Below are positions 5,212-12,485 of a DNA stretch of 62,439 nt, in pieces. The stretch is from the IMG/VR virus record IMGVR_UViG_3300020045_001610, positions 1-62,439 of that record. One strand, written 5' to 3'. Numbering within the stretch: the first letter of the stretch is position 1; every line of letters begins with the position of its first letter. The DNA comes from a virus (Duplodnaviria > Caudoviricetes). Position numbers and translations under genes: made by a program. The notes beneath the pieces are model-generated. The model saw only the letters and a list, made by a program, of their open reading frames with translations. It ran no database searches and was not told the origin of the DNA.

Positions 5212-5616
5212 GTGCCAGCAGCTCCAAGACGCCCCTGTCGCTCGCCAAATTGCGGCGTACTTGGCACAACGCCTTATTGTGAAAAGCATACAATTAAGAA
5301 AGAAGCTGAAGTTCGAGTTGAAAGAATCAAATACGATAAAGAGCGCGGCACTTCGGCAAGTAGGGGTTACGGTAGTCGCTGGTCAACTTACAGTAAGCAA
5401 TTTAGGGTTAATAACCCGCTTTGCTGCATGTGCCTTGAGCGCGGCAAACTTACGAAGGCTGAGTGCGTCGATCACATCATTCCTGTCAGCGGCCCTGACG
5501 ATCCTTTGTTTTGGGAGCCTAGCAATCACCAGTCGCTTTGCCATAGCGACCACTCATTAAAAACGGCCAAGGAAGACGGTGCGTTTGGAAATACGAAAAA
5601 GGATAGGTTTATCTAA
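5212..5616 (+). CDS. packaging-associated HNH endonuclease (HK97 gp74-like)
   Basis: RGYGSRW...NPLCCMC...VDHIIP...NHQSLCH..H..KT; next to TerS. Confidence 0.9.
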   Translation: MPAAPRRPCRSPNCGVLGTTPYCEKHTIKKEAEVRVERIKYDKERGTSASRGYGSRWSTYSKQFRVNNPLCCMCLERGKLTKAECVDHIIPVSGPDDPLFWEPSNHQSLCHSDHSLKTAKEDGAFGNTKKDRFI

Positions 5617-6134
5617 TGGGAACAAATCGCGGCGGCGGCAGACGGCCAACGCCCACACATTTGGCAATCGTGGACAAGGCCCACCAACATCGCCACTATA
5701 ATCAACCCTCCCCCTCAAAGGATTGGCCTGAAGCGCCTGGGCGTCTTTCTGAAGCCGCCAAAGCTATCTTCGATAACTTGGTTGAAACGATAGCTGAACT
5801 ATACCCGCCGTCTGCCTCTCACGTTGAAATGCTTGCCTTGTACGCCGAACATAAAGAACTTGCTATATTCTTGGATGCCTTCTTGCGCGGCTACGATGAA
5901 GTAGAAGACCGTGAAACCGGCGAGTTGCAGCGCGTGTATCGTGGCCTTACTTATCTCAGTGGTAACAACATGATCCGCTCCAGGCCGGAAGTGCAAATGC
6001 TGAAGGATGAACGCAAGGCTTGTACTGACATATTGCGCGAGTTTGGACTTTCCCCCTCGGCGCAGCGTTCGGTGAAAGTTGAGAAAAAACAAGCGGTGAA
6101 AAATGCTTTTGCAGACCTTGACGAAACTGGTTGA
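5616..6134 (+). CDS. terS: terminase small subunit (P27 type)
   Basis: GRRPTPT start, APGRLS, EFGLSPSAQ. Confidence 0.85.
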   Translation: MGTNRGGGRRPTPTHLAIVDKAHQHRHYNQPSPSKDWPEAPGRLSEAAKAIFDNLVETIAELYPPSASHVEMLALYAEHKELAIFLDAFLRGYDEVEDRETGELQRVYRGLTYLSGNNMIRSRPEVQMLKDERKACTDILREFGLSPSAQRSVKVEKKQAVKNAFADLDETG

Positions 6135-6159
6135 CAAAGTATTAAAGTTGTGTTACAAA
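6131..6159 (+). promoter_or_regulatory. sigma70-like promoter for terL
   Basis: TTGACA-17-TACAAA. Confidence 0.55.
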
Positions 6160-6176
6160 GCTTCAACATAAATTAA

Positions 6177-6264
6177 CAGGTCGGATAGGACTTGTTCACG
6201 AATACGCGAGTATAACTTGCGTTGCTGCCAGCCCCTTCATCGTCTATCCACGTTGTTGGGGCTG
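6177..6264 (+). ncRNA. kissing-loop cis-regulatory RNA, copy 1
   Basis: hairpin loop GGATAG complementary to loop CTATCC; same architecture at 42439-42528. Confidence 0.6.
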
Positions 6265-6282
6265 TGCTATTTTAGGAGTGTT

Positions 6283-9183
6283 ATGAATTACGCCGAAATT
6301 GCATTGCAATATTGTCATGATGTTTTGAACGACACTTTGCCCAATAGGAAAGCTTGTAAATTAGAAAAGCTGTCATGCCAACGTCATCTGAATAACTTGG
6401 CTCAACAGGACGATCCTGACTACCCCTATTATTGCGACGATAGGGCCGGTATTAGGCACGTCAAATTTTTGTCGAAGTTGCGCCACTCAAAAGGAAAATG
6501 GCGAGGCCAGCTTTTTGTTCCAGAACCTCACCAGATTTTTTATCACTTCTGTCTTTTTGCATGGAAGAAAAAATCTACAGGATTTAGAAGATTTAATAAA
6601 GCGTATCTAAAAATACCTCGAAAGAATGGCAAGGCGATTTCGATCAATACCCCTCTTCCAACACCTTTAGGTTGGACAACTATGAGTGAAGTAAAAGTTG
6701 GGGATTTGTTGTTTGATGAAAGTGGTGAAATTTGTACTGTACTTAACGCAAGCCCTGTTGCTTATGATAAGGAATGTTTTAAAGTAACTTTTGATGATAA
6801 CAGCTCGATGGTTGTTGACAAAGAACATTTGTGGACTACTTTCGACGCCGGTTCACGCCAAGCTATATCAAACTCAGGTATTAAAAACTACCCTTCAGAT
6901 TGGCCTGCGTGGAAATCACCTCGCGGTAAACAAGCCAATACTATTGATACGGAGCAAATTTTAAAAACACTTGACGTTAAGCCTGGATATAAAAATCATT
7001 CCATACCTGTGTGTGGTTCGATAAATATGCCTGAAGCAAATCTTGAAGTAGACCCTTTCATTTTAGGGGTTTGGCTGGGAGATGGTTCTAGTTCCTCCGG
7101 TTCTGCTCGTATAGCGGCTGATCATCTTAACGGGGATCAATCTTTAATTCGAGAAGAATTTCATCGCAGGGGTTATTTGACGACTACAATATCAGACCCT
7201 GTTCAATTTACTGTAACGGGTTTATTGCGCCAACTTTTTGATATAGGTGTAGTAAATAACAAACACGTACCTCAGCAATATTTAAGGTCTTCTGTTGAGC
7301 AACGTATGGACTTGCTGCGCGGATTGATGCTGACTGATGGTACAATTACAGTTCAAGGACAAGTGAATTTTGAAAATACAAATGAAAATTTAATCGAATC
7401 TGTTTTAGAACTTGCTGTTTCGTTAGGCCAAAAAGCTCGCAAACAATGCCTCACAAGGTTGACGTTGACTGGCAAATCAGTGTGGAGGGTTGAATGGTCG
7501 CCTACGTTAGATGTATTCGGCTTAGGTAGAAAATCCGAACGATTGAAAATAGGTAGTGCTCAATCAATTCGTCACCATCATAGAATTATTAGGAGTGTTG
7601 TTCCGGTCGAATCTGTTCCGGTAAAATGCATTTCAATTGATTCAAAAAACAATCTATATTTGGCAGGAAGACATTTTGTACCGACCCATAATAGCTTTTC
7701 GTCAGCGGGGATAGGTCTTTATATGGCCTTCGCTGATGGAGAGAATGGTGCGGAATGCTACTGCGCTGCGACAACTGAAGCACAAGCGGGAATGGTGTTT
7801 GCCCCTGCATGGAGCATGGTTCACATGGACAACGACCTGAAGGAGGCATTTGGACTCACTCTTGCGGGTACAATTCGCAACCCCACTAGCATATATCGGG
7901 CAGACGATCTTAGCCGGATGGAACCTATTATAGGTACGCCAAAAGACGGAAGTTCACCGAGCTGCGGAATTTGTGACGAGCTGCATGAGCACCCCTCAAG
8001 GGCTTTATATGACAGCCTTGACACCGGAATGGGTGCTCGCGAAGCCCCACTTTTGGTGGCCATCACGACTGCTGGAATTAACATTTCTTCATTCTGTTAC
8101 GAGCTTGAACTTGAAGCAATTCAAATTTTGGAAGGGACGTTAGAAAAGGAAAATGTTTTTGTAATGATCTTTGGTATTGACGTTGATGACGATTGGCGTG
8201 ACTTTGAAGTATGGCGCAAAGCCAACCCGAATTTAGGCGTAAGTATAAATGAAGAATATCTACTTGGCAAATATCAAGATGCGATGACAAACCTTTCACA
8301 GAGGGCCATTTTGCTCACGAAGCACTGCAACGTTTGGGCCAACGCAGGCGCAATGTGGTGCGATATGAATAAGTGGAATGAAAATGCAAGACCTGATATT
8401 AAAATTGAACAATTCTTAGGTAAAAAAGCAACTATTGCAATTGACCTTGCGAGCAAGATCGACATCGTAGCTGTTGAAATAATGTTTGAACTTGAAGACA
8501 TGCAATACAAAATATGCCCTCGTTGCGGCGAGCAAGTTCTATGGGAAAACGAAACATACATTTGCTCTAAGAACAATGCCGAAGGTGGTTGTAGCTGGCA
8601 GCGTAAATCTTCTAAGCGAACAATGACATTTAGTAAATTTTATTTGCCGGAATCCACCGTGCTGAAGAAGGAAAATAATCATTATCAATTGTGGGCAAAC
8701 GAAGGCTTGCTTACGGTAACTGAGGGTGAGCGAACTGACTTTCAAAAGGTAGAAGAAGATTTACAAGAACTTTGTAAATTGTTTATTGTGAGTGAAATTG
8801 TGTTTGACCCGAAGGAAGCGGCGTATCTCATACAGAACATTCAAAAGTGGTTTGGGGGTGAATGTATCGAATGTAATCAGTCGCCAGCGATGCTTTCTGA
8901 ACCTATGAAAGAGTGCGAAGCGATGATTGTCGATGGATGTTTCCTACATGATGGAAATAAAGTATTGACTTGGATGTTTGGAAACGTTATAAGACGACAA
9001 GGTAAAAGCGGCGGTAATGTTAAGTATGCTTATCCGTCGAAACAAAGTGAAGGATTGAAAATAGACGGAGCCGTGGCCTGTATCACAGGATTGTCACGTA
9101 TAATGACTTACGATACCGATTCGGGAGATTCATACAATGCGCGAGCCGCGAAGGGACAGTTGGAGATATTACGCGTAATTTAA
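6283..9183 (+). CDS. terL: terminase large subunit (intein-containing)
   Basis: Walker A PRKNGK|S split by intein, ICDELHE, ITTAG, IAIDLA, KIDG; AGGAG RBS. Confidence 0.93.
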   Translation: MNYAEIALQYCHDVLNDTLPNRKACKLEKLSCQRHLNNLAQQDDPDYPYYCDDRAGIRHVKFLSKLRHSKGKWRGQLFVPEPHQIFYHFCLFAWKKKSTGFRRFNKAYLKIPRKNGKAISINTPLPTPLGWTTMSEVKVGDLLFDESGEICTVLNASPVAYDKECFKVTFDDNSSMVVDKEHLWTTFDAGSRQAISNSGIKNYPSDWPAWKSPRGKQANTIDTEQILKTLDVKPGYKNHSIPVCGSINMPEANLEVDPFILGVWLGDGSSSSGSARIAADHLNGDQSLIREEFHRRGYLTTTISDPVQFTVTGLLRQLFDIGVVNNKHVPQQYLRSSVEQRMDLLRGLMLTDGTITVQGQVNFENTNENLIESVLELAVSLGQKARKQCLTRLTLTGKSVWRVEWSPTLDVFGLGRKSERLKIGSAQSIRHHHRIIRSVVPVESVPVKCISIDSKNNLYLAGRHFVPTHNSFSSAGIGLYMAFADGENGAECYCAATTEAQAGMVFAPAWSMVHMDNDLKEAFGLTLAGTIRNPTSIYRADDLSRMEPIIGTPKDGSSPSCGICDELHEHPSRALYDSLDTGMGAREAPLLVAITTAGINISSFCYELELEAIQILEGTLEKENVFVMIFGIDVDDDWRDFEVWRKANPNLGVSINEEYLLGKYQDAMTNLSQRAILLTKHCNVWANAGAMWCDMNKWNENARPDIKIEQFLGKKATIAIDLASKIDIVAVEIMFELEDMQYKICPRCGEQVLWENETYICSKNNAEGGCSWQRKSSKRTMTFSKFYLPESTVLKKENNHYQLWANEGLLTVTEGERTDFQKVEEDLQELCKLFIVSEIVFDPKEAAYLIQNIQKWFGGECIECNQSPAMLSEPMKECEAMIVDGCFLHDGNKVLTWMFGNVIRRQGKSGGNVKYAYPSKQSEGLKIDGAVACITGLSRIMTYDTDSGDSYNARAAKGQLEILRVI
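6634..7692 (+). mobile_element. class 3 intein with LAGLIDADG endonuclease (353 aa)
   Basis: starts AISINTP, EHLW, VKCISID, PTHN|S; LGVWLGDG and LRGLMLTDG. Confidence 0.88.
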
Positions 9184-9272: not shown

Positions 9273-9512
9273 ATGGGCCTTCAAGACGAACTGCGTGACG
9301 CAAAGCAATCAGCTAAAACTCACGAAGCTATTTGCCAAAATTTAATTGAGGAAAATAAGAAGTATCGCGCTGCGTTGGAAACAGCAGACCGGCGTTTGCG
9401 TGACATTGCCGCAAGAAATGGTGGCCCAACTTGGCTTGAAGCTAAACAAACTTTGAAGAGTGATTTAGACTTAATTCACGACGGAATACACGAAGCTTTA
9501 AAGGAGAACTGA
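9273..9512 (+). CDS. hypothetical coiled-coil protein
   Basis: AAAGGA RBS. Confidence 0.6.
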   Translation: MGLQDELRDAKQSAKTHEAICQNLIEENKKYRAALETADRRLRDIAARNGGPTWLEAKQTLKSDLDLIHDGIHEALKEN

Positions 9513-9513
9513 C

Positions 9514-9735
9514 ATGAAAGTTGCTATTATAAAAGAATCTGGTAGTTTGCTAGCCGTTTGCTCTACAATGAAAGTCGCAGAAGATTCTTTAAAGTTTTCT
9601 TATCACAAAAGACCTCAAGACTTGATTGAAACTTTCAGGGGCTTTGAAAAGATTGAATTTCAAGTTGCAGAGCCTATAGTTAAAACTTTTATTATTTATA
9701 CAACTGATGTAATTGAAACTATAGAACATTTATAA
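9514..9735 (+). CDS. hypothetical protein
   Basis: AAGGAG RBS. Confidence 0.6.
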   Translation: MKVAIIKESGSLLAVCSTMKVAEDSLKFSYHKRPQDLIETFRGFEKIEFQVAEPIVKTFIIYTTDVIETIEHL

Positions 9736-9748
9736 AAGGAGTCCTGAA

Positions 9749-9943
9749 ATGGAAATGCAATTCTTAACACTGCTGAAAGATCATAATGATTTTATGGATT
9801 GGCGTGATTTATGGTTTCCTGACGCAGATGATCTTGAAGAGCCGACGCACTTTCCCTGCTACGCAACGTCTGAATGTGTTGGTTGGGCTGACGTAGAAGT
9901 TGAAGGCGATTGCAAAGGCGACGCTCTGTTTTGGCCGCATTAG
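9749..9943 (+). CDS. acidic hypothetical protein, possibly truncated by premature TAG
   Basis: AAGGAG RBS; frame continues 14 codons past TAG. Confidence 0.55.
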   Translation: MEMQFLTLLKDHNDFMDWRDLWFPDADDLEEPTHFPCYATSECVGWADVEVEGDCKGDALFWPH

Positions 9944-10003
9944 CTTTATCACGATGATGTTGAAGAAATGCTTGAGAATTTGGAGTGAGAAAGGAATTTG
10001 AAT

Positions 10004-10201
10004 ATGAAAATCGGGCAATACGTAGCTGGTATGTTCAAACCTCAAATGCCAAATTTAAAAGTTACAGTTCGAGGTATAACTAAAGTGGTAGCAATTCATT
10101 GCACTAAATGCGGTATTCTAGTCGGCTATCGGCGTTTCGATGTCGATATACTTTGTGTTAATTGTGGGCAAACGCTATTGAGCGAGAAAGGGGAGTGCTA
10201 A
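10004..10201 (+). CDS. zinc-ribbon protein
   Basis: CTKCG...CVNCG. Confidence 0.55.
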   Translation: MKIGQYVAGMFKPQMPNLKVTVRGITKVVAIHCTKCGILVGYRRFDVDILCVNCGQTLLSEKGEC

Positions 10202-10581
10202 TGGAAATTGACAAAATTGCAAGTTTGCAACTACAGCCTGACGATATTTTAGTTTTGAATTATCAAGGTAAATGTAGCGACAAATTGTATGAGCATTTAA
10301 AAGCGACACTTGAACGCATTGCGCCAGGACACAAAGCATTAATTCTCGAACAAGGTATGACTTTGCAAGTTCTCAAACCTGTTCTTAAATGGACTTCTGA
10401 CTTACCGACGCAAGAGGGTTGGTATTGGTGGAAGATGTTTAACGGAACGGTAAAAGAATGCGTAGAAGTTTCGTTAAGTTCTGCCGGTCAGCTTGTAGTT
10501 GACGACGGCGATGAAGTGATTAGTTTGCCGACTTATGGTGGTGAATGGTACGGCCCAATTGAGCCGCCTGAATATCCGTAA
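10201..10581 (+). CDS. portal-clip-like domain fused to Trp-rich domain
   Basis: N-half aligns by eye with portal segment; C-half WTSDLPTQEGWYWW. Confidence 0.55.
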   Translation: MEIDKIASLQLQPDDILVLNYQGKCSDKLYEHLKATLERIAPGHKALILEQGMTLQVLKPVLKWTSDLPTQEGWYWWKMFNGTVKECVEVSLSSAGQLVVDDGDEVISLPTYGGEWYGPIEPPEYP

Positions 10582-10597
10582 AGGAAAGGAGGACTAA

Positions 10598-10807
10598 ATG
10601 GCTTGCGATATTTGTGGTAAAACCGGAGTTCCGTTGCAGCAACTTACCGATACGTATAAGACTGCCAAAATTAATGATCTTTGTGATGATTGTATGCGTG
10701 ATGTAAATAAAGCTCTTAGTGACATTCGATCTATGACTTATAAGATGAACACTTCTTTAACACAAAGATTTATGAATGTTATGAAAGAAAAATTTTTGGG
10801 GTGGTAA
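10598..10807 (+). CDS. zinc-finger protein
   Basis: CDICG...LCDDC; GGAGG RBS. Confidence 0.6.
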   Translation: MACDICGKTGVPLQQLTDTYKTAKINDLCDDCMRDVNKALSDIRSMTYKMNTSLTQRFMNVMKEKFLGW

Positions 10808-10823
10808 AAATAAATCTTGACAC

Positions 10824-10835
10824 TATCTGAATATA
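10824..10835 (+). promoter_or_regulatory. TATCTGAATATA box 1
   Basis: exact 12-mer also at 20690 and 28622; TTGACA at 10817. Confidence 0.55.
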
Positions 10836-10935
10836 GTGATACTTGAATATCCAACAAACGAGTTCCGCTTAACTACAAGCGAGATTTGCCGAAACAAACT
10901 GTTACCTTTGCCGGATAATAACCGACCAGGAAACC

Positions 10936-11136
10936 ATGTTCAAAAAACTTCTTCGCATAATGCCCGACATGTCTGTCTGCTTATTCCTTCTTGGAATAAT
11001 TGCCGTCTTTTTCGGCGTCTATCAGCTTTCAATCCCCAGTTCATACATTGTACTCGGTATCATGCTTATTGCTACGGCGCTTGTTAAAGCTCGCGCTGAG
11101 GCTATTGCTAAAGCTAAGCCTATTGGTGAAAACTAA
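10936..11136 (+). CDS. small two-TM protein preceding portal
   Basis: two hydrophobic segments; common position in HK97-like phages. Confidence 0.7.
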   Translation: MFKKLLRIMPDMSVCLFLLGIIAVFFGVYQLSIPSSYIVLGIMLIATALVKARAEAIAKAKPIGEN

Positions 11137-12485
11137 TGGGATTTCTCAGTTCGCTCTTTGAAACTCGTGCTTCAGTTGGGCCTTCCGTAAATATTAGCAA
11201 CGGCGGCGATTCGGCGTTAGCAGGTATGTTCGGCGGCACCGCAGGAACGGCTTCAGGCCAGAATGTTAACTCCGACACAGCATTAAAGATTTCTACCGTA
11301 TGGGCTTGCATGAATCGTCGTGGTAAAGCCTTCGCAATGTTACCGCTGCATGTTATGAAGGAATTGCCTGGAAACGGTCATGAGATAGCAAAGTCGCATA
11401 GACTATACAAGCAGATGCACTTGAAGCCTAACGCTTGGCAGACATCGTACGAGTGGCGCTTAACCGGCATGACACATCTTCAATTACGCGGCAACTTCTA
11501 CAATCTGAAGATAAGTACACCAGGACGCGGCCTGAATCAGCTTGTGCCGCTTGATCCTGATAGAATGTGGCCGTTTGTTATCACGCCTGCCGGTATCACC
11601 TATTACCTGAACGACAGCAGCCCAACGCCGCCTGCTGGCTCTAAATTGTTCTATCAGTATTTTGCGGTGAATGCTCAAAGTGAAATCTACACCGCTGACG
11701 AGATATTACATTTCAGGAATACGTCAACCAACGGTATTGTGGGCAAGACGTTAATACGTTTAATGGCTGAATCTGTCGGCCTGTCAATGGCAATGGAAGA
11801 ACAGGGAGCGCGATTGTTTACGAACGGCGCTCAAATTGGCAAGGTGTTTACTCACCCTGCTAAACTGGACGATCCGGCGTTTGACAGACTGAAGAAACAA
11901 CTTGACCAATATTCAGGCGCGGCTAATTCCCACAGAACAATTATACTTGAAAATGGAATGGATATTTCAAGTTTAAGTATGACGATGCAAGACAGCCAAT
12001 TTATTGAATCGAGAAAATTTCAAGTTGAGGACATCTGTTCATATTTAGATATTCCAATGATGCTAATTCATCGTTCGGGCGACAAGAATCAAACGTTTGC
12101 CAGTGCTGAAGTAATCATGCAAATGTTTATAACTTTGAACATGCAGCCTGATTTTGAAAACTTTGAACAGCGTCTTAAAGTAGATTTGCTTTACGACTCA
12201 GAACAAGATTACTATTTCAACTTTGACTTTGATGAACTTATGCGCGGCGATACAGCAGCAAGAGCAAGTTACTATCAGGCGCGTTTAAATACAGGCTCTC
12301 TGACACCGAACGATATTAAACGTAAAGAGGGTGAAAGCCCTTATGCAATGGAAGAGTGTGATGCTGTTTATATGGGTAGCGGTATACAGGCGGCAAAGAA
12401 CGTATTGAATCCGCCTGAGCCTATAGCTAAGCCTGAAGTTAAAGTTGAACCAAAAGTGGAGGACAAAAATAATGGCAAAGAATGA
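11136..12485 (+). CDS. portal protein, HK97 family
   Basis: VWAC...LPL, PNAWQT, LRGNFY, ILENGM, QFIESRKF, LTPNDIK. Confidence 0.95.
   Translation: MGFLSSLFETRASVGPSVNISNGGDSALAGMFGGTAGTASGQNVNSDTALKISTVWACMNRRGKAFAMLPLHVMKELPGNGHEIAKSHRLYKQMHLKPNAWQTSYEWRLTGMTHLQLRGNFYNLKISTPGRGLNQLVPLDPDRMWPFVITPAGITYYLNDSSPTPPAGSKLFYQYFAVNAQSEIYTADEILHFRNTSTNGIVGKTLIRLMAESVGLSMAMEEQGARLFTNGAQIGKVFTHPAKLDDPAFDRLKKQLDQYSGAANSHRTIILENGMDISSLSMTMQDSQFIESRKFQVEDICSYLDIPMMLIHRSGDKNQTFASAEVIMQMFITLNMQPDFENFEQRLKVDLLYDSEQDYYFNFDFDELMRGDTAARASYYQARLNTGSLTPNDIKRKEGESPYAMEECDAVYMGSGIQAAKNVLNPPEPIAKPEVKVEPKVEDKNNGKE

Follow-up and report, generated by a model that had tools for sequence, protein, structure and literature searches.

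According to the T4 portal paper, the portal clip joins two stem helices, consists of three strands and one helix, and is the site at which the packaging ATPase and the neck attach; the clip sheet is formed by one strand from one subunit together with two strands from the neighbouring subunit. Published descriptions also characterize the clip as flexible and poorly resolved, with a symmetry that does not match that of the pentameric terminase, and of all interfaces in the packaging motor it is the one that is understood least. Portals are moreover recognized by host sensors: according to published reports, SpbK binds YonE, the portal of SPbeta, at its clip, and Avs4 recognizes portal monomers. 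Here, we describe a gene at positions 10,201 to 10,581 of the virus record IMGVR_UViG_3300020045_001610 (Duplodnaviria; Caudoviricetes), the 62,439 bases of which make up an entire viral contig, estimated to be 81% complete, and are referred to as the window. The gene encodes a protein of 126 amino acids, P0002, and we estimate a probability of roughly three in four that it is an accessory protein from the late packaging operon and has two modules, residues 1-60 (the N module) being a stand-alone homologue of the HK97-type clip and residues 61-126 (the C module) forming a barrel similar to DUF551, MicN and YopX.

Among the described systems, the N module most resembles the clip of HK97-family portals (PF04860, positions ~160-211; 8cez of HK97, 9lbn, and 6te8 of RcGTA), with which it shares the strand-helix-hairpin order, a sequence motif, hhalign probabilities of 96-97% and the location in the same operon. 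Unlike these portals, it is a soluble module of 60 residues without stem, wing and crown, and it has an N-terminal L-x-L-x-P-G/D-D lead-in of its own. The match is confined to portal residues 236-280, and the full portal architecture (wing, stem, crown and 12-mer channel) has no counterpart in P0002. STAS or anti-sigma-factor antagonist domains (PF01740; 3ny7, 1th8) share the first strand-helix-strand unit with the N module, including the D-V-L-V-L strand; the N module differs from them in being half their size and in its hairpin motif, which is unmatched there. Lambda gpW is a head-completion protein of 68 amino acids that is encoded between terminase and portal and acts at the portal after packaging. 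Like P0002, it is small and its gene lies between the large terminase and portal genes; its fold consists of two helices and a hairpin and not of a beta-alpha-beta-beta unit, and the lambda portal belongs to another family. No gpW family was found among the Pfam matches listed for P0002, for 10 family members scanned singly, or for 110 members, of whose 68 matched families 25 were listed. The clip domain as such is known, whereas the open-access literature searched yielded no paper on a stand-alone clip-like protein and no description of a widely spread stand-alone copy.

The gene, its two modules and the portal segment to which the N module corresponds are located in the window as follows.

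10201..10581, plus strand: gene for the two-module protein P0002 of 126 amino acids, stop codon included (open reading frame and translation)
10201..10380, plus strand: N module, residues 1-60, a predicted clip-like beta-alpha-beta-beta domain (AlphaFold2 model, hhalign, family hidden Markov model)
10381..10578, plus strand: C module, residues 61-126, a predicted small all-beta barrel (alignment A1, structural matches)
11136..12485, plus strand: portal protein P0001 of the HK97 family (PF04860, E value 6e-82; phrog_12, E value 9e-95; solved relatives 9lbn and 8cez)
11841..11975, plus strand: putative clip segment, portal residues 236-280, the counterpart of the N module (BLASTP, hhalign, AlphaFold2 model)

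The ATG codon of the P0002 gene at 10201 overlaps the TAA codon of the upstream open reading frame (ORF) 9998-10201 in the sequence TAATG and is preceded by AGGGGAG, and the stop codon occupies positions 10579-10581. At E≤0.01, 23 homologues besides P0002 itself were found, all of them metagenomic. In the resulting alignment A1 (24 rows), the N module is present in 18 proteins, replaced by other sequence in five (P0019 and P0022-P0025) and reduced to a fragment in P0021. P0002 matched no Pfam family at E≤1, and tblastn against 50,697 cultured-phage records gave no match at E≤0.01. The AlphaFold2 (AF2) model, with a predicted local distance difference test (pLDDT) score of 80.5, places strands at residues 16-20, 45-49 and 54-58 and a helix at residues 27-40. 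A preliminary description of this DNA, made by a model from the letters and a list of ORFs, had read P0002 as a free-standing mimic of the clip segment of the portal and had proposed three candidate functions for it, namely a decoy against portal-sensing immunity, a packaging regulator and an inhibitor of competing phages. The likeness to the clip has held; in this phage, however, the protein is not free-standing, because its clip-like module is joined to a second domain, which that reading overlooked together with the membership of the protein in a very large family of 2,044 sequence clusters.

The comparison of P0002 with the portal of the same phage by BLASTP gave 14 identities over 49 positions between residues 18-63 and portal residues 237-285 (26.9 bits, E value 1e-4 for this one comparison), which reproduces an alignment that had previously been made by eye. 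Since a pairwise E value of 1e-4 could arise when many proteins are read by eye, profiles were built, and these strengthened the match. A profile of the whole-protein family was aligned by hhalign with a profile of 38 portal sequences at a probability of 94.3 (E value 9.8e-8), and the 18 N modules reached a probability of 96.4 (E value 1.1e-9, score 59.7) for residues 17-57 against portal residues 236-279. As controls, the reversed N-module query gave a score of 12.9, and 150 column shuffles gave a mean of 13.1, a standard deviation of 2.9 and a maximum of 26.3. When the N-module profile was compared with all ORFs of at least 50 amino acids in the six frames of the window, the portal ranked first with a score of 41.8, and the best of the 258 others scored 19.0.

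The relationship does not depend on the closest relatives of P0002. A profile of 110 family members, compiled without the P0002 subfamily, was aligned with the portal profile at a probability of 96.8 (E value 2.2e-10, score 67.5, 46 columns) and hence scores higher against the portal than the subfamily of P0002 does, while the same profile gave a probability of 0.2 and a score of 13.1 against a control profile of 20 sequences of the large terminase (TerL). Among 259 ORFs of the window, the corresponding hidden Markov model (HMM) detected P0002 (84.9 bits, E value 3.9e-26) and portal residues 237-281 (21.6 bits) and nothing else at E≤10. Scanned singly against Pfam, 26 of the 110 members matched PF04860 at E≤1 (best E value 0.0016), the runner-up family being matched by four and STAS by three; of the first 10 members checked, four matched PF04860, always at profile positions 160-211. 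Conversely, of 24 portal ORFs encoded in the fetched loci, 13 were matched by the family HMM, at about residues 207-288 and with scores of up to 28.7 bits. A search of viral contigs with a small-protein pattern and tblastn of P0224 returned 19 loci, 11 of which turned out to be portal genes matched at the clip. The N module and the hairpin of the portal clip have the motif hK-x-(I/L)-(I/L)-L-E-x-G-M in common. Judged from these sequence comparisons, the whole family shares the likeness to the portal. It is not specific for the portal of this phage, to which the preliminary description had tied it: the N-module HMM gave 19.0 bits for the phage's own portal and up to 25.9 bits for other portals. 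As the N module is no nearer to its own portal than to others, it does not represent a recent copy of this phage's portal gene.

In the AF2 model of the portal (pLDDT 72.6), a helix at residues 211-229 is followed by a strand (236-239), a helix (246-258), a loop, a strand (276-279) and two further helices (284-304 and 324-351). Because the clip joins the two stem helices in the T4 description, and the segment between the helices 211-229 and 284-304 occupies this position in the model, portal residues 230-283 are assigned to the clip. On the basis of this model, the portal stretch matched by the N module is thus the clip, and the preliminary description had chosen the right word for it. Its background statements likewise agree with the literature: it had said that the clip contacts TerL and the adaptor, and in the T4 paper the packaging ATPase and the neck attach there; its statement that Avs4-type systems sense the portal corresponds to the reported recognition of portal monomers by Avs4. 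In the hhalign register, the N-module strand 16-20, helix 27-40, strand 45-49 and strand 54-58 fall on portal residues 236-239, 246-259, ~268-272 and 277-281, respectively. The N module and the clip therefore have the order strand-helix-strand-strand in common, both being predicted models.

With an HMM of the 18 N modules (A3), 2,044 matches at E≤0.001 (33 of them at E≤1e-10) were obtained among 1.84 billion representative proteins, each match standing for a cluster formed at 50% identity. The best 150 of the 2,044 matches were taken, of which six belonged to the P0002 subfamily and 144 were new. Among the latter, 110 have a length of at most 100 amino acids (median 81). In most phages the module accordingly stands alone, and the family members mostly comprise 60-100 amino acids. 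The N module of P0002 matches the family profile over the full 60-residue domain, and the family consensus reads L-x-L-x-P-G-D-x-L-V-L ... L-S ... F-P-x-x-K-x-x-V-L-E-x-G-x-x-L-x-V. Tandem copies occur in two of the 144 members, which is consistent with a module whose copies act next to each other in the manner of clips.

The source names seen for the family were all "hypothetical protein", and only unnamed viral clusters were found as neighbours in the ESM Atlas. An entry without annotation, phrog_23805, was matched by the two members P0148 (E value 5.4e-5) and P0146 (E value 1.8e-4) and not by P0002. When these two members were compared by tblastn with the cultured-phage records, P0148 had no match at E≤0.001, and P0146 matched Ralstonia phage RSP15 alone, with an E value of 0.09. 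Cysteine-rich, zinc-ribbon-like pieces are fused to either end of the clip-like domain in P0016 and in five of the 144 members (P0153, P0162, P0176, P0220 and P0230).

The C module differs from the N module in its pattern of conservation. In alignment A1, its two ends are strongly conserved (LKWTSDLPTQEGWYW ... EWYGPIEPPEY), and its middle is variable in length and sequence. The end motifs ALKWTSDLPTQEGWYW and EWYGPIEPPEY are almost invariant, whereas the middle varies even between close relatives: between the window and the related locus L002, 46 of 60 residues are identical in the N module and 14 of 66 in the C module. To judge from the alignment, the middle of the C module looks like the product of a cassette-style exchange between conserved flanks. 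In VIA-align of the P0002 model, the C module matched YopX (2i2l, Z 4.7), MicN (7xl7, Z 4.3) and 2p84 (Z 3.7), and the E value of the sequence comparison with MicN was 1.8. The fold search of the P0002 model against BFVD, the output of which gives scores but not aligned ranges, contained one match at E≤0.001; 10 of the 50 best entries are named DUF551, and one of these 50 carries the name "Restriction alleviation protein" (E value 1.1e-3). The DUF551, MicN and YopX barrels resemble the C module in being all-beta and about 60 residues long, and in beginning with W...P...G-W/F-Y-W and ending in G-P-I/L-E-P-P. On the other hand, the scores are weak, and Pfam assigned the C module to no family at E≤1 and thus not to DUF551. 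MicN is a bacterial protein reported to be a five-stranded barrel and to act on the interaction of RpoS with RNA polymerase, a role that says nothing certain about the phage domain.

Not all comparisons support a descent of the N module from a common ancestor with the portal clip. Foldseek of the P0002 model against the PDB gave no matches at E≤0.001 and no portal among the entries listed. With VIA-align, the same model reached Z≥5 with none of 48,161 chains; the best 50 matches included no portal, and neither did the best 50 BFVD entries. The VIA-align neighbours of the N module are generic strand-helix-strand units, namely FakB (5uto, Z 4.7), DinI (Z 4.4) and MIF/4-OT (Z 3.3-4.2). Profile searches of the PDB sequences with A1 or with the family profile A4 detected no portal at E≤10; instead, the best PDB matches of A4 were STAS domains, namely the sulfate transporter 3ny7 (E value 0.002) and SpoIIAA (E values 0.044-0.046). 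Furthermore, P0002 and its family fall short of the whole-domain cut-off of PF04860 (39.1 bits), with members reaching ~12-13 bits. All of these results weigh against homology with the clip, although a 45-residue piece of a chain of ~450 residues is a poor target for the scores of Foldseek and VIA-align. Of the two comparisons with portals that the preliminary description had proposed, the profile comparison thus gave a significant match, while no portal was among the entries listed by the fold searches.

These findings could mean that the likeness is convergent, and that the N module is a generic beta-alpha-beta(-beta) binding unit, nearer to the first half of STAS/SpoIIAA, with a role outside packaging such as host take-over. 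A STAS profile was built from 25 of 30 fetched genomic STAS loci (L061, L070, L072, L076 (mis-framed) and L086 were left out). The family was aligned with it at an hhalign probability of 70.3 (E value 3.9e-5, score 30.0, 41 columns), the alignment covering nothing beyond the initial strand-helix-strand unit, whereas the portal profile gave a probability of 0.1 against STAS. Part of the portal signal is therefore due to a common strand-helix-strand pattern. The weak resemblance of the C module to MicN, with its reported action on RpoS and RNA polymerase, would also suit a function outside packaging. Against convergence, the portal match has more than double the score of the STAS match (67.5 versus 30.0; E value 2.2e-10 versus 3.9e-5) and runs through the L-E-x-G-M hairpin, and PF04860 is matched by many more of the 110 members than the STAS family PF01740 (26 versus three at E≤1). 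In the window itself, PF01740, a domain of ~106 positions with a cut-off of 22.6 bits, found nothing at E≤0.001. The portal match is in addition backed by gene linkage: a family that resembled the clip by convergence would not be expected beside portal or terminase genes in 17 of 26 loci. Since such linkage is not predicted by a chance resemblance, it supports homology. Convergence is thus unlikely in our view, and we infer that the N module is probably a true homologue of the clip.

For the linkage analysis, family loci were fetched by small-protein patterns only, which were derived from three sub-alignments of the 110-sequence alignment; the scan of genome contigs yielded one locus and that of metagenomes seven. 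The duplicates L032 and L040 were removed, L001, L002, L045 and L050 were left out as they had been fetched by other routes, and L005, a distant full-length relative unmatched by the family HMM, was not counted. In 17 of the 26 non-redundant loci, TerL or an HK97-type portal is encoded within 4 kb of the small gene, without exception on the same strand; the distance is at most 1.3 kb in 14 of them. The binomial P value for 17 of 26 is 4.9e-6 with 23% expected (an estimate for a 50-kb genome) and 0.0015 with 35% expected. In the opposite direction, nine of the 26 loci have no packaging gene nearby, four of them on contigs shorter than 3.6 kb. The small gene either precedes TerL or lies in the interval from TerL to the portal. 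Overall, the linkage of the family to packaging genes favours a packaging-related role. When loci were instead fetched via the portal gene, two of 11 (L045 and L050) contained a small family gene, which makes the gene an accessory and not a core part of packaging. In several of the fetched loci (L042-L046, L048 and L051), the portals comprise 656-811 amino acids instead of the usual ~440 and hence carry extra domains. Some longer ORFs that precede TerL have the clip-like domain at their end; these were considered as candidates for small terminases and rejected, as a terminase PHROG was matched in none of 10.

Of the 17 linked loci, 13 have TerL as the nearest packaging gene, and four show translational coupling of TerL with the small gene, the start of the latter overlapping the TerL stop codon in L015, L016 and L036 and following it by 15 nucleotides in L025. 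For these reasons TerL is ranked first among the possible partners. Within the ring of portal subunits, strands of each clip pair with strands of the adjacent subunits, and the clip offers the surface on which TerL, and later the neck, dock. A soluble clip copy that is made from the same operon, and is coupled in translation to TerL in several phages, would be expected to occupy a clip-binding surface, most likely that of TerL. Free TerL might then stay bound to, or masked by, the small protein until the latter is displaced by the 12-fold portal clip through avidity. We put TerL forward as the partner of this clip surrogate only tentatively. PHROGs confirmed both TerL and portal in L015, L016, L019 and L023, with TerL belonging to phrog_9 in three of them and to phrog_2 in one, and the portals to phrog_12 or phrog_2662 throughout. 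That two TerL families but only HK97-type portals occur near the family members counts against TerL, and the portal therefore fits as a partner at least as well.

With the portal itself as the partner, the module would pair strands with the clips of portal subunits and could cap or chaperone unassembled portal, form an additional ring beneath the clip, or serve as a poison subunit in the portals of competing phages. Such an arrangement is consistent with the T4 clip sheet, which is described as built across subunits, so that clip-like modules are made to pair with clips; it also agrees with the constant HK97 type of every portal near family members, the TerL families being different, and with the tandem copies mentioned above. 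It is at variance with the position of the small gene, which is never directly coupled to the portal gene and is separated from it by gaps of 89 nucleotides to several kb. Nor is the N module nearer to its own portal than to others, and a poison subunit would also strike the portal of the phage that makes it. We consider the portal a rather improbable partner.

The surroundings of the P0002 gene in the window include the following features.

5616..6134, plus strand: small terminase (PF05119, Terminase_4, E value 7.7e-10)
6217..9183, plus strand: large terminase TerL with an intein in the Walker A loop (insert ~6634-7692; two blocks homologous to the TerL proteins of L001 and L009, which are intein-free)
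9998..10201, plus strand: zinc-ribbon-like protein of 67 amino acids with two CxxC pairs, its stop codon overlapping the P0002 start (Zn_ribbon_3, E value 0.0014, below the cut-off)
10598..10807, plus strand: protein of 69 amino acids with two CxxC pairs, directly downstream of the P0002 gene (translation; no Pfam family at E≤0.01)
10936..11136, plus strand: hydrophobic protein of 66 amino acids, directly upstream of the portal gene (translation; kept in related phages)

The gene order in the window is small terminase, TerL, seven small ORFs and portal, the P0002 gene being the fifth of the seven. These ORFs of 64-126 amino acids fill ~2 kb between TerL and the portal (9273-11136), whereas the TerL and portal genes are adjacent in many related loci. 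Apart from the weak Zn_ribbon_3 match, the other six ORFs gave no Pfam match at E≤0.01. The region 9273-11136 looks like an island of accessory genes inside the packaging operon.

Both modules occur together in the window and in the related loci L001 and L002, whose portals are 96-98% identical. In L003/L004 and L009/L010, the C module is found with other N-termini and the N module is absent; the C module is hence the constant element at this genome position among related phages. This patchy presence among close relatives fits an accessory role. In L001, the portal of which is 96% identical, two C-module genes lie side by side, one (5896-6183) encoding the barrel only and the other (6196-6588) the clip-like module and the barrel.

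A decoy or shield, the function that the preliminary description had named first, would fit the same patchiness. In that case, the clip copy would bind host sensors of the clip or of portal monomers without supporting the oligomerization that activates them, or would cover the exposed clip of the unassembled portal. Besides the presence of the N module in some close relatives and its absence from others, the small number of portal-fetched loci that contain the gene (two of 11), its place in the 2-kb island of seven small ORFs from TerL to the portal, and its production from the same operon just ahead of the portal would agree with such a function. Precedents are the binding of SpbK to the clip of YonE and the recognition of portal monomers by Avs4, as given in published reports. 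However, no sensor is known for the host of this phage, a clip fragment could trigger a sensor as well as block it, and the small gene mostly lies nearest to TerL and not to the portal (13 of 17 loci). We thus regard a decoy function as distinctly improbable.

The neighbours of the P0002 gene on both sides encode proteins with CxxC pairs, which, together with the cysteine-rich fusions in the family, hints at a recurring partnership. The protein P0007 begins with the first residues of the ORF upstream of the P0002 gene, joined in frame to the clip-like domain. The protein encoded at 10936-11136 is probably a membrane protein; homologues precede the portal gene in L001, L002, L003/L004 and L009/L010, and its stop codon overlaps the start of the portal gene. 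A similar small hydrophobic ORF is present in the unrelated locus L016 (2968-3234). The insert in TerL comprises 353 amino acids, is intein-like with a match to LAGLIDADG_3 (E value 7.5e-6) and ends in HN, the junctions being PRKNGK/AISIN and THN/SFSS (the slash marks the junction). It is absent from L001 and L009, and the TerL of L003 is longer (1,042 amino acids).

A natural, soluble clip homologue of 60 residues would be a handy reagent for mapping the proteins that bind the clip. Binding of this homologue to TerL, to the portal or to a host sensor would, if it occurs, represent a new way of regulating packaging or of evading portal-sensing immunity. It is conceivable, if on balance doubtful, that a soluble copy of the clip is carried as a surrogate by thousands of tailed phages whose portals are of the HK97 type, and that it gates the docking of the terminase or blunts SpbK- or Avs4-like immunity. 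If so, the soluble clip surrogate would constitute a new class of mimics derived from a structural protein.

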